Assembly (NCBI GenBank): GCA_010093815.1
Contig: ML996567.1
Length of the DNA: 64,000 bases
Source: Pseudovirgaria hyperparasitica
Lineage: Eukaryota
Strand: one strand, 5' to 3'
A program made the translations under genes and the position numbers. Each line of letters starts with the position of its first letter. The stretch's first letter is position 1. Positions 4,391 to 52,819 of this stretch are shown here, piece by piece. The notes below the pieces were generated by a model. The model ran no database searches. It was given only the letters and a program-made list of their open reading frames with translations, and had not been told where the DNA came from.

Positions 4391-5617
4391 ATGATCAAGC
4401 CGAATGAAAGGTTCATGTCTGAGGGGCAGGGTTATTTTGGTTCACGAGAAGACCCCAACACTGAAACACATTGCAACGTGTGGGACTGGGACCAGCTCTG
4501 CATGATAAAGCTGAAGGGGACAGCGAAGCTCTTTCCGCCCAATGAAGACGTCGAGGTCCCAATACTGGCACGAATGGCCGATCTCCTATCTCCTGAAATC
4601 CGTGCGGTCACAGTGAACGATGAAGGGCTCATTGTCGAAACATCGAGAGATCCAGAGGAGGACGATACGATGTTCATTGGTTATCTTCCCCTCTCCTCTT
4701 ACAAGTTCCTTCATGGATGCCGTCAAATACAGTATTCCAAACTAAAAGAACTCGATCGCCTTGGGCCTGGCGTAGACCTGTGTTCATACCACGACGAATC
4801 CGGAACTCTCGAAAAGGTCGTCTTCAAGTTCAATCCCATTGGGAAGGATTTGCGGTTGAACATGGCATGGAATGAGATTAATCTTCTTGCGACTCTGTCA
4901 ACCCACCCAAATATTGTACCATTTGATCGCGTGGTGCTCGATGATGTTGAATCGCGTGTGGTCGGCTTTACAGTGAAATACATACCTGGAGGGACTCTGG
5001 AGAATCCAAAGATACCATTTCGCTTCGAGTGGTTGAAACAACTCACCGAGCTTGTTGATTATCTCAACCTGGACTGGGGAGTCATGCATCAAGATATTGC
5101 ACCTCGGAACCTGCTCATCGATCCCGAGACACAGAAGCTCCTCCTCTTTGACTTCAACTGGGCTGTGTGTGATACAGAGGACCTATCATCTGGGCGGGAC
5201 GATGTGACTGGTGTCATATTTACGCTATATGAGCTTATCACAAACGATACGCACTTCACAAGCATCGCTCATTGGGAGCGCAATGTGGATGTAGTTCAAC
5301 ACATGACGGACTGGCCTTGCAAGCGCGAACTTGATGCTGACGTAACGACGTTACGCAAGTTCCTGGACGAATGGGTTGCAACCAGAAGATCTCCTGGCGA
5401 CCTTGAACGATTTCTCAATGCACCAAACCAACTTGAATTGTCAAAGCGACCGAACCCTCCCGACTACAATGTCCCTTTTCCGTGTGGAACGACACTCGAG
5501 GGTGAAACGGCGTGGTCGACAGGCCCGCGAGGTGTGCAGGATGCAATTGGAATAGGTCAATTTGTTTTTCGCTGGCAAAGACCGCCACAGAGTAGGTTGA
5601 AAGGGCCAGATATCTAA
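4391..5617 (+). CDS. Atypical fungal protein-kinase-like protein (408 aa, intronless)
   Basis: VVFKFN (beta3 Lys), WNEIN (alphaC Glu), HPNIV, catalytic loop HQDIAPRNLL, DFN in place of DFG. Confidence 0.85.
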   Translation: MIKPNERFMSEGQGYFGSREDPNTETHCNVWDWDQLCMIKLKGTAKLFPPNEDVEVPILARMADLLSPEIRAVTVNDEGLIVETSRDPEEDDTMFIGYLPLSSYKFLHGCRQIQYSKLKELDRLGPGVDLCSYHDESGTLEKVVFKFNPIGKDLRLNMAWNEINLLATLSTHPNIVPFDRVVLDDVESRVVGFTVKYIPGGTLENPKIPFRFEWLKQLTELVDYLNLDWGVMHQDIAPRNLLIDPETQKLLLFDFNWAVCDTEDLSSGRDDVTGVIFTLYELITNDTHFTSIAHWERNVDVVQHMTDWPCKRELDADVTTLRKFLDEWVATRRSPGDLERFLNAPNQLELSKRPNPPDYNVPFPCGTTLEGETAWSTGPRGVQDAIGIGQFVFRWQRPPQSRLKGPDI

Positions 5618-5879
5618 TCATGATAATAAGCAACATGGCTGTATTTTTCGATTCATACTAGAGAGAACGATTTATGTCGTATATAGCAGGGATTACGCTG
5701 CAGGCGAGCCTTATCTGCTATTACCGCGTAGCTCCTACATAGCAATAAGGCTGCAGCCTTTCGCCATAGTCCTCACCTCAGCCTCGCGCGTCTGTCTACG
5801 CCTGTCACTCTCCATCAGAATCTTATCACATAAAACTAGTCGTGACATTCAATGATCGGCATATCCAACGTGATACACT

Positions 5880-8735
5880 ATGATGGAGTCTTTCATTTAC
5901 GAGCCACTCGATTCTGAACAGCATGACTTTAGGCTTCTCACGCTACTTGGCGGCGACGAAAAGCAAATTCGGTGCAGGATCTCCCATTATTCACTGAGCT
6001 CAGACTCGGCTATCAGCAAGCCTTATGAGGCATTGTCGTATGCCTGGGGTGTTACCGCCTTTGTTGAGTGCATCGAAGTCAACGACAAGGAGTTTTGGAT
6101 TACTGAAAATCTGAAAACAGCATTGGATGTTCTTCGGCATCGAGACAAAGGCAATGATCGTACACTATGGATAGATGCCATCTGTGTCAATCAGGAAGAT
6201 CTCAAGGAATGCAATCAGCAAGTCCCCATGATGGGAGAAATATTCGAAAAGGCGGAACAAGTGATCTTCTGGCTTGGAAAAGCAACGAAGCATGCAAGAA
6301 CATTGATGCGATGTCTCAACACCCTTGAATCAGCTTTTGTAGACCGGTCCGAAGGCGAGCATTGGGAGATCGACGATACGCGATGGCTCGGGCTCTGGAA
6401 CAGCTTTGGCTTTGCCGAGGAAGTGAAGCAGGCCTGCGTCACAGGTCTCGAGTTCCTCCTGAGCCAACCGTGGTTTGAGCGAGTGTGGATCATTCAAGAA
6501 GTTGCCAGAGCTAGTGTTGGAACTGTATGCATCAGCGACTTTAACGTGAGTCCAAAGATACTCGCGGTCGCTCCTGTAGTACTCGATACAATTCCCGACC
6601 CTCATTGTCTCTCAATCCTGAGTATAATGCCAGGGGTCACGAATCCGCGCCCTGAGTGGTTGTACCAAAACAACGATATCATCACGATCATGTCGAGGTT
6701 TAGAAACTGCAAGGCCACAAAGGTTCATGACCGAATTTATGGACTACTAGCAGTCTGCACCCACCATGACATCCAGATTAACTACGACCAACCAGCTAGC
6801 GAGGTCTTCCAGCAGGTCTTCGATGCTACACTCAATATGACTACCGCATCCTTGCATGAAGTGCTCCTCATATTTCAAAACTTACCAACACTTAGTGCTG
6901 TATTCATGGTCAAAGTTCAAGAAGATATCTGGGCAAGCTCCATGAAAATGGCTTCGTTCGAAGTAATTGACGGATATTGGAGGACAAGATACGAGAGTTT
7001 AGAACCGCTTTTCGACGCTTTGATGTCCGTACATAAAGAAACGAAATTTGACTGGCGGTTGCTGATAGAACCGAACGAACATCGTGTATCCGACACAGAG
7101 AAGACAATGTTCCAGAAAATATCGCATCTCCAACGAAAAGAAGACGGAGGTCCGGGCTACCTTCTTACCCGGAGGTTGTTTGATGATGGGACGTCAATGG
7201 CGCATGTGCAGGTTATGGTGCCCGAGGTAATGACCGCCAAAGTATGGGCGATAAACGATCTGGGTATGGCATTACACACTGCCCATTACTATACTGGTCT
7301 ATCCACTGCTCGAGCTTTACTCCAAAGTGTGAAATGGAGTCCGGATTTGTTAGACCCCGTATTCCAAGCATCAGTTACAAGATTGCGTCATGAAATTGTT
7401 GAATTACTGCTTGAGACAAGAAGCACTCATAATGCAACTCAACTGGACCTTGACAAGGCCTTGGGTCGAATACCCTTGGGTGAATCATCAGATCGTAAGC
7501 AAATTGCACTACACATATTTGAAAAGTTGATCCAGTCAGGGGCTAGTTCAACCTCGCTACAGAACAACATTGGCGTTCTTATTGCCGCACTATTGGAACC
7601 AGGATTTACCGGGCTCGCGGAAACATTACTTTGCAAAGACCCAGACCTTGCACAAGTGGCCTTGTTCACAGCTTCGAGTTCTGGTGACCCGGACGCCATC
7701 CAGGTACTGTTATCGTATGTCAAGAATGTGAACTGCATAGACCCTAAAACAGGCTTAACACCATTAATGGCTGCTTGTACACCAGGTAAAGAAAATTGCG
7801 TCCGGAAACTCATTGCCGGCGGCGCAGATGTAAACCAACAGGCTATTTCTGGGCATACGGCTCTATTCCAGGCCGTGATACACCGTGCGAAGCTTAGTAT
7901 GCGACAGCTCATTAGCGCTGGTGCAGGTACAAATATCATGGATAAAGATGGGCGGACGGCCCTATTTGAGGCCGCACGATGCAAGAACGAGAAGGCTATA
8001 GATAAGCTTATTGCCGCTGGTGCAGACGTCAATTTCGCAGACAAGCTCGGGCGTACGCCATTATTTGAGGCCACAACGTCTGAGCACATGATTGGCATGA
8101 GGTACCTTATGGTGGCAGGCGCAGACGTCAATCACAAAGATAATCGCGGGCTTACGGCCCTATTTGAGGCGGCACGACATAGGGAAGAATACTGTATACG
8201 AATGCTTATTAACGCTGGTGCAGACGTCAATTCCACAGATGACCGCGGGCGTACAGCTATGTTCGTGGCTGTAAACTATGGTTCAGTAGACTCTCAGCTA
8301 CCCCTTCTCGCCGCTGGAGCCGATTTGAATCATAAAGACACCGATGGACAGACAGTCTTCTTAATGGCCATGCATCGCCAAAACTGTGTGCACAGCAAAA
8401 TCATCGCCGCTGCAGCCGACGTTAATCAGGTAGATGACCGAGGAAACACAGCGCTCATTATAGCAACAAGAAGCCTATTCTATAGCAAAGAGGTCGTGGA
8501 ATCATTGCTCAAAGCTGGTGCTGATGTGCATTATCAGAGTGCCGAGCATGGGACAGCATTTCACGCGCTGATCAACACATGGAGTTTTAAGGACTGCTGT
8601 TATAGTGATGGTCCAATATTGACAGCTGACTGTTTGCTCGAATACGGCGCTCAGCCTTCAGAGGAAGACGCGGAGACACTGAGGAGGTGGCAAAGTCATC
8701 TAATGATCACTCGGAGGAGAACGATAGCACCTTGA
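5880..8735 (+). CDS. HET-domain protein with C-terminal ankyrin repeats (951 aa)
   Basis: HET motifs YEALSYAWG, LWIDAICVNQED, QVPMMGEIF..A..V.FWLG, WFERVWIIQE, D.IYGLL; about 9-10 ankyrin repeats (G.TALF.A ... LI.AGADVN). Confidence 0.9.
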   Translation: MMESFIYEPLDSEQHDFRLLTLLGGDEKQIRCRISHYSLSSDSAISKPYEALSYAWGVTAFVECIEVNDKEFWITENLKTALDVLRHRDKGNDRTLWIDAICVNQEDLKECNQQVPMMGEIFEKAEQVIFWLGKATKHARTLMRCLNTLESAFVDRSEGEHWEIDDTRWLGLWNSFGFAEEVKQACVTGLEFLLSQPWFERVWIIQEVARASVGTVCISDFNVSPKILAVAPVVLDTIPDPHCLSILSIMPGVTNPRPEWLYQNNDIITIMSRFRNCKATKVHDRIYGLLAVCTHHDIQINYDQPASEVFQQVFDATLNMTTASLHEVLLIFQNLPTLSAVFMVKVQEDIWASSMKMASFEVIDGYWRTRYESLEPLFDALMSVHKETKFDWRLLIEPNEHRVSDTEKTMFQKISHLQRKEDGGPGYLLTRRLFDDGTSMAHVQVMVPEVMTAKVWAINDLGMALHTAHYYTGLSTARALLQSVKWSPDLLDPVFQASVTRLRHEIVELLLETRSTHNATQLDLDKALGRIPLGESSDRKQIALHIFEKLIQSGASSTSLQNNIGVLIAALLEPGFTGLAETLLCKDPDLAQVALFTASSSGDPDAIQVLLSYVKNVNCIDPKTGLTPLMAACTPGKENCVRKLIAGGADVNQQAISGHTALFQAVIHRAKLSMRQLISAGAGTNIMDKDGRTALFEAARCKNEKAIDKLIAAGADVNFADKLGRTPLFEATTSEHMIGMRYLMVAGADVNHKDNRGLTALFEAARHREEYCIRMLINAGADVNSTDDRGRTAMFVAVNYGSVDSQLPLLAAGADLNHKDTDGQTVFLMAMHRQNCVHSKIIAAAADVNQVDDRGNTALIIATRSLFYSKEVVESLLKAGADVHYQSAEHGTAFHALINTWSFKDCCYSDGPILTADCLLEYGAQPSEEDAETLRRWQSHLMITRRRTIAP

Positions 8736-38975: not shown

Positions 38976-40701
38976 ATGGCCGCCCGCCCGCAGAACATTG
39001 GCATCAAGGCCATTGAAATCTACTTTCCCTCGCAGGTCTGTCTGCCCCTCCCTGCGTCCTGTTTTCCCCACCACAACAACAACAATAGCACGAACTGACC
39101 TGACTTCTGCCCGCAGTGCGTCGACCAAGCCGAGCTCGAAAAGTTCGATGGCGTCTCTCAGGGCAAATACACCATTGGTCTCGGCCAGACCAAGATGAGC
39201 TTCTGCGACGACCGCGAAGGTGCGACTCCCTACTACCTTTGTCCCCCGCAACGACGCGGCACTGACACTGACACTCCTCTTCTACTACAGACATCTACTC
39301 CCTCGCCCTCACCACCACCGCCTCGCTGCTCAAGAAGTACAGCATCGACCCCAAGTCCATCGGCCGCCTCGAGGTCGGCACCGAGACGCTGCTGGACAAG
39401 TCAAAGTCGGTCAAGTCGGTGCTCATGCAGCTGTTTGAGCCGCACGGCAACACCAACGTCGAGGGCGTCGACACCGTCAACGCCTGCTACGGCGGCACAA
39501 ACGCCCTCTTCAACTCGATAAACTGGGTCGAGTCGTCCGCCTGGGACGGCCGTGACGCCATTGTCGTTGCGGGCGACATTGCGCTGTACAAGAAGGGCAA
39601 TGCCCGCCCGACCGGCGGCGCTGGCTGTGTCGCCATGCTCGTCGGCCCAGACGCCCCCATTGTGGCCGACCCGGGTCTGCGTGGCAGCTACATTGTGCAT
39701 GCCTACGACTTTTACAAGCCCGACCTCACCAGCGAGTACCCCGTCGTCGACGGCCAGTTCTCCATCCGCTGCTACACCGAGGCCGTCGATGCCTGCTACA
39801 AGGCCTACAACGGGCGTGAAAAGACGCTCAAGGGCCTGGCGAACGGCCAGGCCAACGGTGCGAACGGACACGCGCCGACCGCACAGCACGAGACCCCGCT
39901 CGACCGCTTCGACTACATGGCCTTCCACGCCCCGACCTGCAAGCTCGTCTCCAAGTCGTACGCTCGCATGCTCTACAACGACTACCTCCAGGACCCCTCG
40001 AACCCGCTGTTTGCCGAGGTGCCCAAGGAGCTGCGCGACATGGACTACAAGACCTCCGTCACCGACAAGACGGTCGAGAAGACGTTCATGGGCCTGACCA
40101 AGAAGCGCTTCGCCGCGCGCGTCCAGCCCGCCACCCTCGTCCCCACCATGTGCGGCAACATGTACACCGCCAGCGTCTACGGCGGCCTCGTCAGCCTGAT
40201 TGCAAACGTCAGCAGCGCCGATCTGCTCGGCAAGCGCATCGGCATGTTCAGCTACGGCTCCGGCCTGGCCAGCTCGCTCTTTTCCTTCAAGGTCAACGGC
40301 GACGTGGCCGCGATGCAGCAGAAGATTGACCTGCACAAGCGCCTCGACGCGCGCCGTGTTGTGGAGCCGCAGGTCTATGACGATGTGAGTGGGCTTGTCT
40401 TTCTTGCAGTGTCTTGCAGTGTTTTGCAGTGTTTTGCAGTGTTTTGCAGTGTTTTGCAGTGTTTTGCAGTGTTTTGCAGTGTTTTGCAGTGTTTTGCAGT
40501 GTTTTGCAGTTATATTGTATACCCATTTGCGGCGTGTCACGTGCTAACCCTTTGCCCGTCCAGATGTGCAACCTCCGAGAACGTGCTCACCTCAAGAGCA
40601 GCTATTCCCCATCCGGCAACGCCGACACCATCGTGCCCGAGACCTACTACCTCACCGAGGTCGACGACATGTTCCGCCGCAAGTACGCCGTCAAGGCATA
40701 G
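38976..40701 (+). CDS. ERG13: HMG-CoA synthase; introns 39036-39116, 39220-39290, 40385-40563
   Basis: [42 protein letters not shown] (catalytic Cys), [21 protein letters not shown]. Confidence 0.97.
40401..40510. repeat. 10-bp minisatellite (GTTTTGCAGT), 11 units, inside ERG13 intron 3
   Basis: Two variant units followed by nine perfect units (40421-40510). Confidence 0.97.
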
Positions 40702-41589
40702 TATAGCGGTCTTGAATTCTACCTACCTTTTGCGTTTAGAGAAAATACCCGCCCGTACCTACTTGCTTCCGAAACCCCGCCCCCCTTTTTTGCGCATCTT
40801 GTCAGGAGTTTGATATGTTAGACGACGCCTCGATGTGGAAAGAAGCATAGAAGTGACGTTTCTTTGGCTTTTGCTGTGGCCAGCCTGGCGTGGGCTAGGT
40901 TGTTGTCAACAAGAGTGAGAGAGAGTAGATGGCTGCCGAAGCGACGGATTTTTACGTTTTTACCTTTTTTTTCCTTTTACTGGCGATACCGGGTGGTACT
41001 GGGTTTTAATGGTCATGTGACATGTGGACTGCAAACTGCAAACTGCAGTGCAAAAGACGAAACGTCGGTATATATATTTATATAGCTCGCAGCCTCGCAG
41101 CCTCTGAGCCTCGCAGATTCAACACCGCGACGGGTGTCTTTGCGCGAGGGGCGGTCTTCCCCCCGTTAGCCGGCAGTCTGGCACGGGGACAATGAGTAGA
41201 CTATAGATTTATGCTATTAGTATGATCTTTCTGGCATGGCATGACCTCGCTGCTGTTTTGAAAGAGCCCATCTTCTGTGTGCGCAAGGGACGATGTTATG
41301 ATGTGTTGTCTCGCGCCCGCCCGGCGGCTTACCGGATTGGGCGTCCCGGGGCTGCTCGACGTACCTACCTAACATGGTATGTAGCATGACCTCTGACCTG
41401 CAACGTCCCCGCATTATATTATATATATCGTCTACAACGACGTTCTGTTGTGCCTCTTATAAACGATATACTGCCGTTACCTTGGGGTTCTTAGCACACG
41501 AAATTATAATCACCGTTCTGCTGGGTAAGATACAAGGCGGATCCAGACGTTGACTTCGACATTGTTGCAAAGGACACTGCTATAACGAC

Positions 41590-41730
41590 GACATCAACGA
41601 CAATCACGACGACAATCACGACAATCACGACCACAATCACGACCACAATCACGACCACAATCACGACCACAATCACGACCACAATCACGACCACAATCAC
41701 GACCACAATCACGTCGACATCAACGACAAT
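41590..41730. repeat. 12-bp minisatellite (ACAATCACGACC)n with degenerate flanks
   Basis: Seven full units plus a partial unit from 41621. Confidence 0.95.
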
Positions 41731-41766
41731 CACATCACCCACCACTACCACCACCAACCCCAAAAA

Positions 41767-43266
41767 ATGCCCTCCCAACTCCCCCTCCCCCACCCAATCT
41801 CCTCCCTCGACACCCCCTCAATGCTAATCTCCCTCCCCGCCCTCGAATCAAACATCACCTCCCTCTTCTCCCTCCTCGCCGCCTCCCAATCCCCCAACAC
41901 CAAAAACAAAATCTCCGTCCGCCCCCACCTCAAAACCACCAAATCCCCACACATCGCCCACAGACTCACCCGCGCCGGCGCCCGCGGGTTCTGCGTCGCC
42001 AAGGTCTCGGAGGCAGAAGTCATGCTCGACGCGGGTGTGACGGATCTGTTGATTACCACCGAGGTGGTGGGCGAGGTCAAGGTTGCGAGGGTGGTGGAGC
42101 TTGTGCGGCGTGTGGAGGGGATCAATCTGGCTCGGGCTCGGGCTCGGGCTCGGGCTCAGGCTCAGAAGGATGGAGAGGAGGAAGGAGAGGAGGGAGATGG
42201 AGACGGAGAAGGGGAAGCAAGAATATGCTGCGTGGTAGACTGTCCCGCCGGCGCCGACGCGCTGAACCACGCCCTCGCCCTCGCCTCCCCTTCCCCCCAA
42301 TCCACGCCTCTAACCCTCGACATCCTCCTCGACATCAACACCGGCACCCACCGCACCGGCCTACCCCCCGGCCTCCCCACCCTCCACCTCGCGCAACACA
42401 TCCTCACGCAAACCCCGCACCTCCACATCCGCGGCATCCAAGGCTACGAAGGCCACGCACAGCACATCCACCCTGCATCTGCGCGGCGCGCCGCGTGCGA
42501 GGAGAGTCTGGCATTGCTTACTGGTACGGCGCGGCTGTTGAGGGGGGAAGGGGTGGATGTGGGCGTGGTGTCGTGTGGGGGCACGGGCACGGTGCGGGTT
42601 TGTGCGGAGTGGGTGGATGGCGTGGATGGGGTGACGGGCGTGACGGAGGTGCAGCCGGGGAGCTTTGTGGGCATGGATGCGGATTATTTGGATGTGGTTT
42701 GGGGGGGAGGGGCGTGGAATGCGGAGGAGGAGGGGGATGGAAAGGGGGATGGAAAGGGGGGAAAGGGGAATGAGGGTGATGGAAAGGAGGAGGGAAAGGG
42801 TGATGGAAAGGAGGAAAAGGAAAAGGAAAAGGAAGAAGAAAACGGCAAATTCAAACCCGCACTATGGATCCTAAGCACAGTCATCAGCGGACCCTGGGAC
42901 GTCGACGTCGACGACAACGACGACCAGCACCCCGAAACAGGACAGAAACAACCCCCCAACCGTCCCCGCCCCCGCCGCCGCCGCGCAGTAATAGACGCCG
43001 GCCTGAAATCACTCACCACCGACAGCGGGCCCGCGCGCGTCTGGCAGCGTCCCGGCGTGACATACGAGCCGCTCGGCGACGAGCACGGCGGACTGACCTG
43101 GGACGCGGACAGCGATCCACAGGGCGGATTCGCGTGGGGCGAGCGCGTGCTGCTTGTGCCGAGTCATATCGATCCGACGGTCAATCTGCATGATGTCTTT
43201 TATGCTTGTCGGGACGGGCTGGTGGAGGAGGTGTGGCCGGTTGTTGGGAGGGGGATGGTGCAGTGA
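41767..43266 (+). CDS. Fold-type III PLP enzyme, D-threonine aldolase / DSD1 family (intronless, with low-complexity insertions)
   Basis: LDTP, RPHLKTTK (PLP Lys), CVAKVSEAE, RTG, GIQGYEGH, GGTGT, TEVQPGSF..MD.DY, DAGLKS, GDEHG, PSHIDPTVNLHD. Confidence 0.85.
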   Translation: MPSQLPLPHPISSLDTPSMLISLPALESNITSLFSLLAASQSPNTKNKISVRPHLKTTKSPHIAHRLTRAGARGFCVAKVSEAEVMLDAGVTDLLITTEVVGEVKVARVVELVRRVEGINLARARARARAQAQKDGEEEGEEGDGDGEGEARICCVVDCPAGADALNHALALASPSPQSTPLTLDILLDINTGTHRTGLPPGLPTLHLAQHILTQTPHLHIRGIQGYEGHAQHIHPASARRAACEESLALLTGTARLLRGEGVDVGVVSCGGTGTVRVCAEWVDGVDGVTGVTEVQPGSFVGMDADYLDVVWGGGAWNAEEEGDGKGDGKGGKGNEGDGKEEGKGDGKEEKEKEKEEENGKFKPALWILSTVISGPWDVDVDDNDDQHPETGQKQPPNRPRPRRRRAVIDAGLKSLTTDSGPARVWQRPGVTYEPLGDEHGGLTWDADSDPQGGFAWGERVLLVPSHIDPTVNLHDVFYACRDGLVEEVWPVVGRGMVQ

Positions 43267-43681
43267 TTACAGGTGGTTCTTTTTTGTTTTTTTTTGTTTT
43301 TTTTTGGGGGGAGGGTATGTGGAATGAGGGGTTTAGGGTTTGTGGTTTGTGGTTTGCGGCATGTCGTACAATCATGATACATGATGATGCCTATTTGAGA
43401 TAGGAGTAGGCTAGTAGCTTGATCTGAGCAGTCTTGTCTCAAATCACCTCAAGCCCAACTCCCCAACACCAACGAAACAAAACAAAAGAAAACACAAGTG
43501 TCCATCGTCGGTCCATTGACCCATTCGCACCCTTCTCCGCAAACCCTTTCCCCATTCCAAAGACGCTGTAAACTCCCTTCGCTAACCCTTCCGAGCCGCG
43601 TCGCAAACATATCAGACTCACCTCACGTTCCTAGGCCAAAACGCTTCGTACATTCCCCCCCAACCCGGCACACCCGCGCAA

Positions 43682-45106
43682 TCAGCCGCTTATGGCCCTC
43701 GTGATCATAGCCCTCGGCGGCGACATACCAGACCGCGCCCGACAACCAAGCAATTCCCGGTTCTCCTTCTCCTCCTCCCTCTCCTCCTTCTTCCGCAACC
43801 GCGGTGGTGGCAACGAGCGCTTGGACACGCCCGCGCTCCGTGTAAGTCTTCGTGTCTTCACTTCCGCTTCCGCTTCCGCTTCCACTTTCGCTTTTGCTTT
43901 TGCTTTCGCTGTCCCCTGTCGATGTGCCGTCGCCGTCGAACGCGCCGCTGTACCCCGCTTTACAGCCTGTTTCCGGCGTCGCGTCTTCTGCTCCTCGCGC
44001 AACACACCAGCAACAGCCACAGCCACAGCCGCTCCTCCATCACCCTGCCCCTTCATCTCAACCAGATGTTCAAACAACCCACGAAGCTGGTCGGGCTTGC
44101 TGATATCATAGATGCGTGTCTCGTCATCAATATCGTCGACGGCCAGCTCTCCAGAGGTCAGAAGGTCTGCAAGATCCCGCCCTTTATACGTCAAATTCGC
44201 GGTTGGGTGCTGGGCGAGGTCAAACACGATGTTGGGCTTGCATTCGTCGCTGTCAAGCACGACGCATGATGTTTCCATTTTCTTGAAGAAGTCGTCGATG
44301 TCGGTGGTGAGGTAGCGGAGGAGGGGACTGATTACGAGACGGGCGAGGGCCGGGTGCTGGGGATTGTGTTAGATGATGAGAAGGCGTTTGAGGAGGGAGA
44401 AGGGGAGGATGACTCACGTCGAATGTAATTCCCCCACCATCATCTCTGCCCTGATTGGGCGCGAGGCGAAACGCGCGGCACATGTTTGTCAGTCCGTCGA
44501 ATTGCCAGTCACGCTCCATGTCGTCGTGTGCTTGTTGTAGGAAAGGGTCAGTGGTGCGCGGATTCCATATCTCCGTCACGCTGGCTACTTTGTCCATGAG
44601 AGGGTACATCTCCGGCGGCGTGTGGAAGAATAGATCCAGTAGATATGTAACTATGCTGTAAAGAATAGGCTTGTCGTCATCTAGGTGGAACATCTTTCGT
44701 TCGAGCGGACTGACCACTGCAACAACCCTGTCCGCCAGATTATCTGGTATGATATCCTTGAGCTGCGAGAAACTTGTGTATCTTCGGAAAGGCTGAGCAG
44801 AAACTACGACCGGGTATTCGAAGTCCTGGGGTAAGCATGTTAGCGAAAGCAAGGCTCACGCAGAGTTGACAAATGAAGTTATGCATATATACATACCAGC
44901 ATCAGTATTTGCGAATTTTGCTGGCTCTGGATGTTGATACTAAAGTCAAAAACGCGCAGAACATCGGTGATGGCAGATCGGATCATACCGTCGTCGAAGA
45001 GGCGTAGACCATATTGCAAGAACGACGGAGTTGCCGAGTCGTGGTTTTTGAGTATCGTGAGGAGGTCGGATTCCTTACAGCCGTTACCGAGTACGCGTGA
45101 TGACAT
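43682..45106 (-). CDS. Hypothetical protein of ~430 aa, family not recognised; exons 45106-44897, 44825-44418, 44356-43682
   Basis: Two phase-0 introns (gtatgt...ccccag and gtgagt...ccccag, each with a ctaac branch point) join three ORF-track fragments into one frame; basic low-complexity C-terminus. Confidence 0.65.
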
Positions 45107-45236
45107 GGTGAGAGCAGTATAATAGAGTGGACAGTATAGTATGATCAGATCTTTGAGTGGTGGTGTTGAGCAGAAGATGTGTGTGTGTGTGTGTAGGAGA
45201 GAAAGAGGAAGAAGGCAAGTTGGGAGCTGAAGTGAA

Positions 45237-45404
45237 GTGACGCTCAATTACGTCAGCAAGCTCAAACAACCTACCAAACTTGGTGGAATGTTGAGCCAAG
45301 GCGCTAACATGTATGAGTCACGTGGTTGGAGTGCCTTCGGGTAAAATCTGCGGCGTGAGTCATGCATGGAAGTGTCACGTGTGTTTTCTTGTCACGCTGA
45401 TTGG
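45237..45404. promoter_or_regulatory. Cluster of bZIP/bHLH-type motifs in a divergent promoter
   Basis: TGACG...TTACGTCA (~45238-45255), TGAGTCA 45314-45320 overlapping CACGTG 45319-45324, TGAGTCA 45356-45362, TCACGTG 45375-45381, ATTGG (reverse CCAAT) 45400-45404. Confidence 0.5.
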
Positions 45405-46112
45405 CCATAGAGTATCTATCTGCTCCCAACTCCCAACGCCCTGCTCCCTACTCAATGAGTGTTGACGACAACATACGGTGAATACACACAAAGTTGCCTT
45501 CTTCTACTTACTCTCCTCCGCACTGGACACAATTGATCTCTGGTTTACCAGCTTCTGGCCTGATCCCGATTCATGGTAGTCTTCTCCCTTGTCGGACAGC
45601 TCACAAGGGAGTCCACAAGCCATGCTGTGCCTCAAGGCAACTAACTTGACTGGCTCCGATAGACTCTTACCTGGTCTTTTGCTTGAGCGGTGCTAGGGTC
45701 TCCCAGCCAATACTGTGTGAACAACAAACAGCATATGGCCAGCAATGGAGTTTGTCCGGCGGCAAATAACAGGGTCCAGACCTCGTCGCCATCTTACTGG
45801 GTGATGCACAGGCTGAAGCCTGCAGTCTGTGGAGTGAAGTGCAGACTGAGGCCGGCGCGAGAGCTAGCCTTGCAAAACAATGGGATCCAATATTCTGCAC
45901 AGCCTCCTTCAAGGCAACAGGTAAAACACCAACCATCAGACGGAAGCTAGGTAGCTCCACCCTGGCGCTTACTCGCGCTTGGACACACTACTAGATAGAG
46001 CTGCCTTGCCTACCACACATCACCGCTGTTCGTCCTGCCTTGAGTCCTGAGAAGAAAGTTCCCGACAGTCTCTGTGCATCCAGGTAGACAAGTCTTTAGC
46101 AACACATACAAC

Positions 46113-47650
46113 ATGGATACCGAGCATTCCTCCATGCTTCAACGTGACGAATCTGAGGAAGTCGAAGCTGTCTATTTTCCAAGAGGAGAGCGACGACCTG
46201 ATGAGCTTCCCCAGGGGCGGTATATTGACCGAACGCTTGAGGCCGATATCACGTGCGCGGAGTCATCTGGACAACCACCGGCTAAGTATCAGAAGCAGAG
46301 CGCAGATGAGAAAGCAGCTACAGCAGAAGTCACCCCAAGGAAGTTTTGGACTCCGAGTGAGTGGGCCACCAAGCAATTGGAGTTCTGTCATGTTGTATTC
46401 TGTGTCAAGCAAACAGACAGGAGCTTAATCTGTCCCCCCGACTGGGTCGATGATCAGCTATTAGACTATCTGCTTCTAAACATGGAGATAAGTCCAAAAG
46501 ATGTAAAGCAAGACACAGTCACTGGCACCGGATACCCGAACCGGGTTGCAAGACTGCATGCTAATTACGAGTTGCGGAAGCACTTGCCACCTGGCCGTAA
46601 CGCTTATTCAGCATTGTCAAGCATCATTCAGAGAAAGAGAAAGAAAGGAGATGAAGATGGGGACGGAGATGAAGAGGAGGACGAGACGGAATCTGAACTC
46701 GAATTCGAAATGAGCGACGAGGAACCCACACAAACTGCGTCGCGTTCCGGCCGGAAGAAAGAACGTTACCGGAACGACCTTACGCCCCATGATGTTTTCC
46801 CGGACAACTACCCGGAGGACTACGTGCTTGAGCGTCACCAAACTAAGTCGGGCACAACTTCACCCACTCTTAGTCAAGAGGCTAAGGATGAGACTTATGT
46901 GGACAACCACATGCGACAGTTCTTGCATGAGTCACTGAATGCAAAATTGGGAGAGCAGTGGCCGGCTAATGATAAATACGTGACCCTGTGAGTACTGCTG
47001 CACCGAAAGTGAAGTTTGTCTGTGTTGATTCTTGGGCTTTATTAGTGAGCAGAATCAATATCCTTTCGCGATCTTCGGAAGAAACGTATATACCAAGCCC
47101 GACTTCTTTGTCACACGGCGCCCCAACGAACCGTGTCTCGTAGTCGAGGTAGGCATTCGGGCGGTAGTGAAGTGAGATGTTAGACATAGTCTGACTGTGC
47201 CCAGAATAAACAGTTGCATCATAGCTATTCAGTTCCAAACCTTCATGGTCAGCTAGTCGCAGAAGCCATCGGAATTGCAACAAACAGATACGCATACCTA
47301 CATGAACAGGGGCATCGAATCGTTGACCCTATGGAGGTAAGTCAGCTTACCTGTCGAATGTGCCGCAATCTATAATAAATCTAACTGTTTCATAGATAAC
47401 ATTGATATCGTGCGTCCATTTTACTGCCAAGCTCTACAAGGTGTACATTCCGGAGTCCTATCTGGAATGGTCCTCTCGAGCCCGATCATTATCAAGTCGT
47501 CCACCAGCACCAGGATATCTAAAGGTCGTGAGGGAGAGTCAGTTGTACGATCTGAAAAGCATGATCGGTTCGTCAGCGATGCTCAATCGAATATTACATA
47601 TCTTTCCACACCCACAGCCGCAGCCACAGCCACAGCAAACTGCATCCTAG
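46113..47650 (+). CDS. Putative PD-(D/E)xK (restriction-endonuclease-fold) protein, 454 aa; exons 46113-46987, 47046-47148, 47205-47336, 47396-47650
   Basis: Three GT-AG introns join in frame, giving ETYVDNHMRQFL ... YTKPDFF ... CLVVE|NK ... GQLVAEAIGIA ... ITLISC..F..KLYKVYIPESYL. Confidence 0.65.
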
Positions 47651-47959
47651 GGAGCGGTCACGAGCCATGATTACGCACACCGGTCCAGCGTTATCGATAC
47701 AGCAGGCACAATTGGCAACAAGCAGGACCTAGGAATACACGCTGCCCATAGAGCTGGTGTGTCGAACGGAGAACCGGGTTTAAAGGACGGATGGGTATCG
47801 GCGAAACAGGTGTCCCTTTCAGGAATATATAGTCCTCAATGTATCTAGCAATTGCCGCTCTCGGAGAAGGATGTGGCTTTGAGGGAGAGTTCCCCCTGTT
47901 TTTCAAACACACTCGTTAGACTCCTCCACTTTTACCCAATTACTCGGTTTGACATGATC

Positions 47960-49480
47960 GCACACACACACATACAACAGCCCATACAACAGCCCATACA
48001 ACAGCCTACACAACAGCCCATACAACAGCCCATACAACCAACACCCATGCCCAAAACACATCCCTGAAATACAACCAGCAATGTATCCCTGAAATATATC
48101 CCTAGAACACATACCTAAAACACAAACTTAAGAACTACCAACCTCCTCCTCCCCCTTCCTCCTCTACCCCTTTAGTACCTCCACCCACCAGCCATGCACA
48201 CACATACATAGAAATCAAGCCAAACTAGTCAACATACAACACTTATACCCGTGTCCGCTCCTCCTCTAGTATAATCTATAAGGTGCTTTTGTATTCTCTA
48301 GGGGGACGGAGTAGTTCTTCTTACTTCTCCTCCTCCTCCTCCTTCTTCTTCTCCTTCTCCTCCTCCTTCTTCTTCTTCTATCCCCTTATTCTCCTCCTCC
48401 TCCTCCTCCTCCTCCTCCTTCTCCTTCTTCTCTTCCTCTTTATTCTTCTCCTTTTTGTTCTCTTCCTCCTCCTCCTTCTTCATACTTCTTCTTACTTCTC
48501 CTTCTTCTCCCTCCTTCTCCTTCTTCTAATTCTCCTTCTTCTTCTTCTTCTTCTTCTTCTTCTCCTCCCTACCCCTATTCTATTCTGTTCTATTCTATTC
48601 TATTCCATCCTATTCGATTATATAGATGAAGAAGAAAGAAACATATTTCAAAACACGCACATGCACATGCACATGCACGCACGCACGCATGCACATACAC
48701 ATGCACGCACGCATGTAAGCATACACGCACGCATGCACACAACACACGCACGCACATATACACACACGCACACGCACACATGCACGCACGCACATACACA
48801 TACACATACACACGCACGCATATGCACGCACGCACACGCACGCACGCACGCATGCACGCATGTACGCATACTCTACAAGGTAGTAGGAAATGAAACTGTC
48901 TTGTAACGGTCTGGTAATTGTCTGATATTGCCTGGAATTCTATCATCTGGCATTCCATCCATCCACGCATCCACGCATCCACGCATCCACGCATCCACGC
49001 ATCCACGCATCCATCCCTCTATCCATCCATCCATCCATCCATGCATCCACGCATCCATCCCTCTATCCATCCATCCATCCATCCATCCATCCATCCATCC
49101 ATCCACGCATCCAAGTCTCAATCCAAGAAGCCCAAACAGAAAAGCAGCCATTCAAAAAGCACACGGGCAAATACACAAAGCACACGCCAATCTCCTACAA
49201 CAACAATCCAGAACGCGAGCAGTGTACTGTACTGTACTGTACTGTACTGTAGATGGTAGTAATCGCATAATGCAGAGTCCATGTATACAAAGCCCCCAGG
49301 CCCCAAGGCCCCAAACACCGTGTATGTCTAGTCTAGTATAGTATAGTGTACGTAAGGAAGGAAGGAAAAGGGACGCCGATGGCGACGTCACTACCACTGT
49401 GATCACTACCGATACCATATCATAACCACAACACCCACAATGACCACCACCACCACCACCACCACCACCACCACGCCCAC
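47960..49480. repeat. Compound micro/minisatellite tract: (CATACAACAGCC)n, (CCT/CTT)n, (ATTCT)n, (GCAC/CA)n, (ATCCACGC)n, (ATCC)n, (GTACT)n, (CAC)n
   Basis: Directly visible; lies between convergent 3' ends. Confidence 0.95.
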
Positions 49481-49545
49481 AATGACCACAATACCATCAC
49501 CACACCCACACCCATCACCATCACACCCCTCACCAAAACCCCCTC

Positions 49546-51294
49546 TCAAAACGCCGGCAAAAACCCACTCTCAATCAAACTCTCACTAGCAACATAACTA
49601 AACCCGCCAAACGGATTATTCTCACCCATCCTAACATCCCCATCCACCGCCACACCAGCACCACCACAACCAGCATCCCCACCACCACCACCACCCCCAA
49701 ACCCCAGCCCCACCCCACAACCAACCGGACTCAAACTCAACCCCACAAACTCCGGATCAAAATTCTCCGCGAGCGCGGGATCCGTAATAACAGGCACAAT
49801 CGGCGGCACAAGCTCCTTGCGCTCAAGCGCCCGCCAATCAATCCTGCGAAAAAACCGATGCCCCTTAATCGTGCCCAAGTCCCTCGGCATATTCGCGCCG
49901 AGGCGCTTCTTCGGATTCTTATTCAACAAGCGGGTGAGAATGTCCTTTGCGTCGAGGCTGAGGAAGTAGGGCAGGTGGGGCTTCGCCTTGAGGATCTTCT
50001 CCTGGATCTTGGTGGTGTTGTTGGCGGTGAAGGGGGCGGAGCCGGTCATGAGGTCGACGCCGAGGGCGCCGAGCGACCACCAGTCGACGGCCATGCCGTA
50101 GGGGGCTTCGCGGACGACCTCGGGGGCCATGTACTCGATTGTGCCGAGCATGGACTTGCACTCGCTGCCCTCGACCGAGACCTTGGACAGGCCAAAGTCC
50201 GTGAGGAGGAGGTGGCCGTCGGCGTCGAGGAGGATGTTTTCGGGCTTGAGGTCGCGGTAGACGACGCCGAGGTTGAAGTGCAGGTGCTCGAGTGCCAGGA
50301 CCATTTCGGCCATGTAAAAGGCCGACTTTTCCTCGTCGAACATCTTCTCCGCGCTGAGGTGGTGGAAGAGCTCGCCGCCTTGGGCGTATTCGAGAATGAG
50401 GTAGAGCTTCTCCTGGTCCTGGAAGGCGTAGTAGAGCTTCACGATGAAGGGGTGGCGGTTCACGCTCTCTAGGATGGCGCGTTCGGATTTGGTGTGCTCG
50501 ATCAACCGTTTGTGAACGGTCAGGGAAGCTTTGCGAAACTGCTTCTGTGCGTACAGCCGACCGGTCCCACGCTGCCGGACGAGCAAGACTGTACCGTATG
50601 CGCCCTTTCCAAGGCAGTTTAGGGGCTCAAAGTCGGCGGCGGTCATCTTGCGCGACATGGTCGGTCGGCGCGAAGCAGCCAGGTCCACAGTTAGTGCAGA
50701 CTTTGGTGGCTCCGTGGCATCAGGACTCATGAAATCCTCTTCCAGGCCGATTTCATACGTCTCCGTTTCGGTTCGGTCGCTGTCGCTACCGGTCGATATA
50801 CCACTTTCGGTGCTCATAGTGGTGTTGCTCTCGCATCTCTGCAGCAGTTGTGCAGGAGTCTCCGCACCATTCAAGGCTTGGCTAATACTCAGATGCTCAA
50901 GCTGCTGCTTCAGCGCGCTAATGCCAGATGGGCCTGTTTGGGGTCGAAGTGCTGGGCTGTTCGTGATACTCGAGTATGCGGTGCTGGGTCCTATTCTAGG
51001 CGTACTCAGCGCCGAGATGTCCGACTCCTCTCCGGCCGAAGCACCGGGGGTGTGGAAGCCTCGTGTAACTGTCGTAGCTGGTGCTCCGGCCTTTGCGTTG
51101 CGCTTCTTTTTCTTCTTCTGCTTTGCTGCATTGCGAGCGACTTCTTCGATGTTGATCTTACCAGCTCCTTCAGTCCTCTGAGCGGATGGTGTGCGTAACA
51201 TCCTCGGTGCCTGTGGGGACATGATGGTGATGGGCGGGGTCCCAGTCTGACGGCGATCCACGACGTCATCCATGGCAAAGTCGTGTAGCGACAT
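49546..51294 (-). CDS. psk1: AGC Ser/Thr kinase Psk1/Ypk3 (S6K-like)
   Basis: [51 protein letters not shown], hydrophobic motif FGGFSY. Confidence 0.88.
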
Positions 51295-52819
51295 TATGAT
51301 TGTACTGTTGATCGAGTATTCCTTGTAATATACGTGGAGGTATAACGCAGCCAAGTATGTGCAGGTCGTAAATTAAAAGTATAGATAGGTCGGAGTCGGA
51401 AATTGCGCTCCAAAGACGTTTTTAGGGTTCCGTAGAAATAAGCTTTCACATCTGCTCGTCCAGTCCCTCGCTTTCCAAGGCCCTGTAGAATACCTGATCT
51501 GGGAAATTTGCGGCACCTTAAGAGACAAAGTCCTTGACGCCTGCTTGTGTTCACCGCCGCCCTTTCACTTCTTTCCCACACTTGCTACCAACGTCGGACC
51601 TGCCCCAGTATTACCGTCCGCCCTGTTCAAGGCGGACCGTCCGCCAGTAGCCAAAGCAGCGATGCGAAGCTGGCGTCGGTATGCGAGATCTCGAGTGTCA
51701 GGACTCGATCAGGGAGAGCAGCACAGGCAACGTCGCGACAGCGAGCAAGTTGGAAGCGTGTGGGAAAAGTCGTGACAGGGCCCATAGATGGTGGTAGTGG
51801 TCGATAAGGTGTCTCTTTCAAAGGTCAGGGTGTCTCTGACCGCGCGGTAGTATGTCGTTGTTATCCGGAATGTTGGGGGTGGGAAGGGGTGAAAAGCAGG
51901 AAACAAAGTCGGAGAATAATGACTGTCGACCGTCTTAGTCAGGCAACAATTTTCAGCCGCCCTTCGTTCCCCAGACTGAGCCGTATCGGGTTAGCGTGGC
52001 AGCCGGACACACCTCGGCTCGGCCCTATCGAGAATGGGAAAGTGTGTACAGTACAAAACGCCATCGCCATCGTCTCTCGCACGTGCTGTAGATCGTCCAT
52101 CTCTGTCGCCATCTTTATATTTAGCATACACATCAACACTACCATCGATCCTAATCCTTAGTCATCTCGAACCATCATCATCCTTGCCGAACATCATTCA
52201 GACAGCAACAGACTGCGTGTTTTGCAACCCAAAAGCTGTGAATGCGCGCACCCAGTCAATGCGCATCCCACTGTCTTGTCTGGCCATGCTTGTGCATATG
52301 CACAAAGAGGCAGCATGCGGTTATGTAATGTAATGCAATGCGATGCGATGCGACGTGGGCAAGATCAACGAGTACAGGGATGTAGGAGAAACACGTGCTA
52401 GCATGAGATGTGTATATTAGATGATCTATCTCATTCTATAATCAGTCAATCAACGACATGCCATCTGGCCTCCCTTGGGAAACACAATGACTGGTGAACC
52501 GAAAACGCCATGCAGTGAAACTCCGAACACGCTAAATGGACTTGAACTGTAATTAGCGTGACAACTGCAGACAATTTTTGCAAAAGCAAAGACCGGAAAG
52601 TAGGCGCTCAAACAGTGTGGTATCGCGCTCTACTCTGTCACCTTTCGCACAACGCCGTAAAACCACAAACATGCATAACTCATTAATAACTTCGTGAACG
52701 CATTACCGGAATGAAGAACGTAATCAGGCGGGAGGTCTTGGGCCACAGATCGTCAAAGGCCGTGAAATGACAAGCTTCTGTGTCGTTGTATACCGATATC
52801 AAGGACGGCTCGCGAATGC

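Follow-up and report, generated by a model that had tools for sequence, protein, structure and literature searches.

A divergent pair of spliced, apparently orphan genes in a repeat-rich stretch of Pseudovirgaria hyperparasitica, one of them with a PD-(D/E)xK-like signature

The head-to-head gene pair at positions 43682–47650 of a 64,000-nucleotide stretch of Pseudovirgaria hyperparasitica DNA (GenBank assembly GCA_010093815.1, contig ML996567.1; the whole stretch is referred to as the window) raises the question of whether a gene on the plus strand with a nuclease-like signature and its divergent neighbor on the minus strand form a toxin-antidote, meiotic-drive, or allorecognition module, as a first-pass annotation of the sequence had proposed. 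The end coordinates, 43682 and 47650, are those of the two stop codons. We judge that the pair is not a demonstrated module of any of these kinds. The two are probably ordinary lineage-restricted (orphan) genes that are expressed and that diverge from a short shared promoter region.

Gene Models and Transcript Evidence

The analysis started from a stop-to-stop map of open reading frames (ORFs) over 41–50.5 kb and from a reading of both strands, in which two introns were read directly in the minus gene and three in the plus gene. Four public runs contain the stretch; X1 and X2 belong to one sample and probably represent the source DNA, and X3 and X4 represent sample S2 of study P2. Over the interval compared (43000–48300), the contigs of X3 and X4 skip all five of the predicted introns exactly, whereas those of X1 and X2 skip none and are collinear with the window. 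The type of X3 and X4 is not on record, and none of the runs with the stretch is listed as RNA; the skipping of all five introns is our sole reason for taking X3 and X4 to be RNA-derived assemblies. As these contigs skip exactly the introns that were predicted, both gene models are fixed as listed here, with intron bounds given after correction for contig cut offsets.

44897–45106, minus strand: minus-gene exon 1, residues 1–70; ATG at 45106–45104, the first ATG inside the contig-supported leader; joint to exon 2 present in X3 and X4
44826–44896, minus strand: minus-gene intron, CT..AC on the plus strand and hence GT..AG for the gene; skipped in X3 and X4
44418–44825, minus strand: minus-gene exon 2, residues 71–206; both bounding joints present in X3 and X4 contigs
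44357–44417, minus strand: minus-gene intron, CT..AC on the plus strand and hence GT..AG for the gene; skipped in X3 and X4
43682–44356, minus strand: minus-gene exon 3, residues 207–430; stop codon at 43684–43682
46113–46987, plus strand: plus-gene exon 1, residues 1–291 plus two nucleotides of codon 292
46988–47045, plus strand: plus-gene intron, GT..AG; skipped in X3 and X4
47046–47148, plus strand: plus-gene exon 2, residues 292–326; carries P310-D311 (D codon 47101–47103) and E326 (47146–47148)
47149–47204, plus strand: plus-gene intron, GT..AG; skipped in X3 and X4
47205–47336, plus strand: plus-gene exon 3, residues 327–370; opens with N327-K328, completing E-x-K across the splice junction
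47337–47395, plus strand: plus-gene intron, GT..AG; skipped in X3 and X4
47396–47650, plus strand: plus-gene exon 4, residues 371–454; stop codon at 47648–47650

After splicing, the plus gene (coding sequence 46113–47650, four exons) is open for 454 codons and the minus gene (coding sequence 45106–43682, three exons) for 430 codons, and neither frame contains a stop other than the terminal one. The spliced X3 and X4 contigs and these open frames bear out the earlier description of two multi-exon divergent genes, and both are real, expressed, spliced protein-coding genes. No letter differs among the four runs over 43000–48300 (5.3 kb), a comparison that comprises two samples only. Minus-gene contigs have depths of 6174 and 2059 and plus-gene contigs depths of 678 and 323, values that cannot rank the two genes.

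In terms of protein sequence, plus exon 1 encodes a largely hydrophilic product that contains an acidic tract and two K/R clusters; a helix is predicted for residues 260–282 (low-confidence model), and the C terminus of the plus protein carries a P/Q repeat encoded by a 6-nt array at 47606–47636. The last ~105 residues of the minus protein form a basic and charged low-complexity tail that derives in part from 6- and 18-nt repeats; Tandem Repeats Finder (TRF) places arrays in minus exon 3 at 43763–43788 and 43857–43910. Neither protein has a hydrophobic N terminus and both have K/R clusters, and from these features both may reasonably be taken to be intracellular, possibly nuclear.

Search for Relatives

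All homology queries were single exons, not joined spliced proteins. Word-index searches returned no match to plus exon 1 (291 residues, 64% of the protein) among proteins of 160–510 residues, none to plus exon 4 (84 residues) among proteins of 148–2000 residues, and none to minus exon 2 (136 residues) among proteins of 239–2000 residues. With plus exon 1 as the query, an exhaustive phmmer search of 1.84 billion representatives gave only two matches, P0001 and P0002, both of which were rejected as homologues: they are tandemly repetitive proteins in which the score is spread across six and three stretches, respectively. Scans of metagenome contigs confirmed none of 118 pattern matches for minus exon 2 and none of 590 for plus exon 1. 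Searches of the exon pieces against Pfam (E ≤ 1, then E ≤ 10), PADLOC (E ≤ 10), and the sequences of the PDB yielded nothing near significance, and minus exons 3 and 2 had no usable match in the ESM Atlas (recognition 1585 and 1907). No paralogue of either gene was found in the 64-kb window.

Several sub-threshold matches were considered and set aside. DUF7774 aligned to residues 255–278 of the plus protein with E = 0.039, a score far under the cut-off in a scan of seven pieces, and was rejected; a literature search returned no paper mentioning this domain. MetW (PF07021), which aligned to residues 2–26 of the minus protein (E = 0.16), scored 12 bits where the cut-off is 21 and was likewise rejected. 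Assignment of the minus gene to the class I S-adenosylmethionine methyltransferases was also dropped, the MetW match being sub-threshold and the glycine-rich motif I, G-x-G-x-G, being degenerate. The best match in the PDB, the beta chain of the signal recognition particle receptor (E = 0.062), aligns to the basic tail of the minus protein and was rejected as low-complexity; the remaining PDB sequence matches all have E ≥ 1.

As a control, an exact look-up found the 408-residue product of 4391–5614 in the collection (NCBI/UniRef, 2.32-Mb contig), which indicates that the deposited proteins of this genome are in the database. The other six of the seven ORF-level look-ups were absent (the HET-ankyrin ORF with two starts, the kinase, the plus exon 1 ORF, the 3-deoxy-D-arabino-heptulosonate 7-phosphate (DAHP) synthase, and DUF3419), most likely because our start and exon guesses are unlike the deposited models. 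The lack of a self-match for either gene of the pair suggests that both lie outside the deposited annotation or are present there as short pieces only; both genes may be missing from that annotation despite their clear spliced transcripts.

The first-pass annotation had called only the minus gene an orphan. The minus gene retains that description, the pieces of it that were searched having no relative in the word-index, metagenome, Pfam, PDB, or Atlas searches, but the restriction to the minus gene does not hold, as the plus gene is likewise without a credible relative. At the available sensitivity, both genes look like orphans.

A Nuclease-Like Signature in the Plus Protein

The first-pass annotation had described the plus gene as a nuclease-fold gene, and its protein does have a PD...ExK signature, which spans the exon 2/3 junction. 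The plus protein contains K-P310-D311-F-F-V and, 14 residues on, L-V-V-E326/N-K328, in which the slash marks the junction. The resulting signature, PD-x14-E-x-K (D311, E326, and K328), is intact and sits in a strand-like hydrophobic context. Upstream of it lies the helix-prone segment at residues 260–282, which is helical in a model with a predicted local distance difference test score (pLDDT) of 40, and downstream lies a further helix-prone segment, followed in exon 4 by two hydrophobic runs of strand-like character. As read from the sequence, the predicted order of elements around the motif (helix, three strands, helix, strand-like) matches that of the PD-(D/E)xK core. When the motif is cast, post hoc, as a strict regular expression, it is matched by 22 of 20,000 shuffles of the plus protein and by none of the 185 ORFs of at least 100 residues in the window.

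No nuclease family matched the exon pieces of the plus gene in Pfam (E ≤ 10), PADLOC (E ≤ 10), or a phmmer search of the PDB, and the single-sequence AlphaFold2 models are unusable, with pLDDT values of 40.1 for plus exon 1 and 48.9 for minus exon 2. The intact PD-x14-E-x-K signature is the sole basis of the nuclease call. From the motif and the hydrophobic pattern, the C-terminal region is a candidate nuclease fold, and we put the chance that it is a true one at somewhat below even.

The form of the motif raises the alternative that one or both genes are fast-evolving orthologues of conserved fungal genes, for example a degenerate nuclease subunit of the ERCC4/Hjc/VRR-Nuc type. The plus-protein E-N-K following a hydrophobic strand may resemble the ERK/EVK cores of these families. 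Diverged core genes would also suit the housekeeping neighborhood and the native third-position composition described below, and the exon-wise searches are of limited sensitivity. Against this stand the phmmer search, in which 64% of the plus protein found nothing real among 1.84 billion representatives, and the motif-bearing pieces, for which no Pfam family appears even at E ≤ 10. We consider such an origin unlikely.

The Shared Upstream Region

The two start codons, at 45106 and 46113, are 1006 bp apart, in agreement with the ~1-kb spacing noted in the first-pass annotation. This interval is not, however, intergenic throughout. The plus-gene contigs of X3 and X4 begin at 45461 and 45460, respectively, and at least 653 nt of it are therefore transcribed as plus-gene leader; the minus-gene contig reaches 45168, and ~291 bp are left.

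45460–46112, plus strand: plus-gene 5' leader of 653 nt or more; six ATGs precede the start codon, and the longest upstream ORF (uORF) is 71 codons
45169–45459, no strand: gap between the transcript contigs, ~291 bp covered by neither; presumed shared promoter region, starting with a CA-rich tract

Contig ends are not equivalent to mapped transcript ends. The uORF-rich leader could reflect translational control or sensitivity to nonsense-mediated decay, or could comprise two overlapping transcripts merged in assembly.

The only link observed between the genes is this shared upstream region, which would allow at most co-regulation. By our own estimate, about one-quarter of neighboring gene pairs are expected to be arranged head-to-head, and the divergent layout consequently carries little weight. 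One could nonetheless envisage two cooperating, non-selfish partners in nuclear nucleic-acid metabolism, for instance a nuclease with a subunit that regulates or targets it, co-regulated from a bidirectional promoter. An upstream region common to both genes, of which the contigs leave no more than ~291 bp uncovered, would be in keeping with such a pair, as would the K/R clusters and the lack of a hydrophobic N terminus in both proteins and the occurrence of both spliced forms in the same two runs. Adjacency is, however, the sole link between them, and no homologues were found and hence no conserved co-occurrence; a cooperating pair appears improbable.

Composition, Neighborhood, and Repeats

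The GC content at third codon positions (GC3) is 0.51 for the plus gene and 0.62 for the minus gene, compared with 0.49–0.78 for nine neighboring ORFs; the codon GC3 of both genes is native. The TpA/ApT index of the pair is 0.73 versus 0.67 for the whole window, and (CpA+TpG)/(ApC+GpT) is 1.18 versus 1.22. As the dinucleotide indices of the pair equal those of the window, there is no signature of repeat-induced point mutation (RIP). Neither mobile-element boundaries nor mobile-element ORFs were found around the pair in the ORF map and repeat search, no long direct, inverted, or terminal repeats bracket it in a repeat search of 40–52 kb, and Rfam gave no match over 40000–52000.

The flanking features are as follows.

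39272–40813: HMG-CoA synthase (HMG_CoA_synt_N/C), flank, by Pfam
41554–43266, plus strand: pyridoxal phosphate (PLP) enzyme (D-ser_dehydrat and Ala_racemase_N), same flank, by Pfam
47971–49724, no strand: dense microsatellite block of 1.7 kb, lying between the plus and kinase genes
49546–51372: protein kinase (Pkinase), opposite flank, by Pfam

These assignments agree with the flanks named in the first-pass annotation, HMG-CoA synthase and the PLP enzyme on one side and a protein kinase on the other. Pfam also places in the window a Brr2-type helicase, a kinase-like ORF, an ORF with HET and ankyrin matches, DAHP synthase, an actin-family ORF, aquarius, DUF3419, a TACC protein, a piece of a major facilitator superfamily protein, and a flavin mononucleotide dehydrogenase. 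The surroundings are a housekeeping neighborhood.

The repeat-rich island described around the pair is likewise present. The interval 40404–49724, which makes up 14.6% of the window, holds 24 of the 30 TRF rows and 17 of the 22 distinct arrays of the 64-kb window (score ≥ 50). All arrays in this interval are micro- or minisatellites, several of them within coding sequence.

The composition and surroundings of the locus bear directly on the proposal of a conflict module, in which the plus product would be a toxic PD-(D/E)xK nuclease and the minus product its antidote or partner, the two forming a spore killer, a toxin-antidote pair, or an allorecognition pair. Such a module would account for two orphan genes that are adjacent and divergent and whose spliced forms occur in the same runs, for the intact D...ExK signature of the plus protein, and for the position of the pair within a repeat-rich 9 kb of the window; a precedent for the toxic role is SPOK3, in which killing needs the PD-(D/E)XK domain and is abolished by K240A (PMC6660238). 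The locus itself argues otherwise: there is no second copy in the window, the pair is surrounded by neither terminal or inverted repeats nor mobile-element ORFs, RIP is not apparent, GC3 is native, the genes are embedded between housekeeping genes, and over 5.3 kb no letter separates the two samples. The known killers also differ. Spok, cited as a precedent in the first-pass annotation, is a single gene whose protein carries its own kinase domain as antidote (PMC6660238), and no kinase domain was found here. In Neurospora Sk-2, rfk-1 is located near a border of a 30-cM element according to the abstract of bioRxiv 10.1101/404004, which is not the arrangement of a divergent neighbor pair.

The toxin-antidote or drive pairing was drawn from layout; it has a low prior and gained no positive support, and we regard a conflict module as very unlikely. 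Hardly more can be said for its most specific form, a young lineage-specific two-gene element in which a nuclear PD-(D/E)xK nuclease would be held down by the long, uORF-laden leader and the antidote or partner would be produced from the same bidirectional promoter. This element, for which we see only a slight chance, would function as a spore killer or an allorecognition pair; its place of origin would be the fast-evolving, microsatellite-rich interval that separates the housekeeping genes and not a transposon.

Several further features of the surroundings were observed. The block at 47971–49724 consists nearly entirely of varied micro- and minisatellites, with units of 12, 3, 5, 4–20, 8/44, and 3 nt; its first part is within the plus-gene transcript contig, which continues beyond 48300. 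The 10-nt unit TTGCAGTGTT makes up an array at 40384–40533, with 10.7 copies and 98% identity. This array begins directly after GTGAGT, just downstream of the match to the C-terminal domain of HMG-CoA synthase, and looks like an intron packed with repeated acceptor-like GCAG units.

The PLP enzyme contains in-frame low-complexity insertions that derive from tandem repeats: a 12-nt unit repeated 9.8 times at 41600–41713 encodes an H/D/N-rich run near the N terminus, and G/E/K-rich runs lie at 42129–42209 and 42731–42842. The spliced minus-gene contig of X3 extends past its own stop, over the stop of the convergent PLP gene (43266) and beyond 43000, which reflects either overlapping 3' ends or transcripts merged by the assembler.

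At the far end of the window, one long ORF on the plus strand (5874–8735) encodes a HET domain followed by ankyrin repeats, an architecture of the fungal non-self-recognition type. It is adjoined by the kinase-like ORF on the plus strand at 4391–5614, whose 408-residue product forms a cluster of its own in the public collection. These two ORFs are ~38 kb from the pair and have no link to it.

Interpretation

Our preferred reading, that of ordinary lineage-restricted genes, would place the pair in a microsatellite-rich stretch of an otherwise housekeeping neighborhood. The plus gene would produce a non-secreted protein of 454 residues, the N-terminal two-thirds of which, hydrophilic and probably disordered for the most part, contains K/R clusters that could serve as nuclear-localization signals. 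Its C-terminal ~190 residues may constitute a Mg2+-dependent phosphodiesterase of the PD-(D/E)xK type that acts on nucleic acid. The minus gene would produce a protein of 430 residues, composed of a putative structured part of ~320 residues and the basic tail.

Several points weigh against this reading. Adjacent, outward-facing orphans, a repeat-rich stretch, and an intact catalytic signature would also fit a young conflict module. The orphan status is weaker than it appears, the queries having been single exons only: the word-index search of the minus gene covered 136 of its 430 residues, and that against longer proteins only, the exhaustive HMMER search was that of plus exon 1 only, and the nuclease-like part of the plus protein was searched as pieces of 34, 44, and 84 residues, which are too short for remote detection. 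The term “lineage-restricted” is not datable, as the search sets are without related fungal genomes. In addition, the motif statistic follows from a regular expression that was written after the motif had been seen by eye.

A toxin-antidote or drive system at this locus would, if true, add a two-gene architecture that is new among fungal selfish elements, and its nuclease killer would be open to direct study. The present value of the pair is modest and consists of two splice-supported gene models for proteins that seem to be absent from the public protein set and of one candidate new PD-(D/E)xK-like domain, predicted from sequence.

Comparison with Known Systems

The plus protein shares several features with the PD-(D/E)xK superfamily. 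P-D is followed by hydrophobic residues and, 14 residues later, by a hydrophobic stretch that closes with E-x-K; the motif is flanked on each side by a helix-prone segment, with two strand-like runs also on its downstream side. Searches with the exon pieces of the plus gene found no member family by sequence or profile, however, and the signature is short.

In SPOK3, the nuclease motif, QxxxY, a cysteine cluster, and a resistance-conferring kinase domain are combined with a coiled coil in one protein (PMC6660238). Like SPOK2, SPOK3, and SPOK4, which are fungal intracellular proteins, the plus protein has a PD-(D/E)XK signature and no signal peptide. It differs from them in that no plus-gene exon has a Pkinase match, and the proposed antidote here is a separate gene. 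It also differs with respect to QxxxY: K328 is followed by Q-L-H-H-S-Y, which places a Tyr at +5 from Q329 (Q-x4-Y), and no Q-x3-Y was seen by eye in residues 329–400. At the level of homology, the 291 residues of the plus protein searched had no real match among the 1.84 billion representatives, a set assumed to include Spok homologues.

Adjacent fungal allorecognition gene pairs exist. Linked two-gene loci such as the rsk/rfk-1 locus of Neurospora Sk-2 resemble the present pair in comprising two linked genes of no known family. Such loci are defined by drive or incompatibility phenotypes and by allelic or presence/absence polymorphism. In Sk-2, moreover, rfk-1 is located near one border of a 30-cM element and not beside its partner, according to the abstract of bioRxiv 10.1101/404004.

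Crinkler-type restriction endonuclease effectors may share with the plus protein a restriction-endonuclease-like domain at the C terminus, preceded by an N-terminal region that is variable. They are described as delivered effectors with characteristic N-terminal header domains, whereas the plus protein has a hydrophilic N terminus, no signal-like segment, and no detected similarity.

The best-fitting category is that of fungal taxonomically restricted orphan genes. Like these, both genes of the pair have no homologues or domains found, a native composition, and parts that are low-complexity or encoded by repeats, and both are expressed and spliced; we see no feature in which the pair differs from them.

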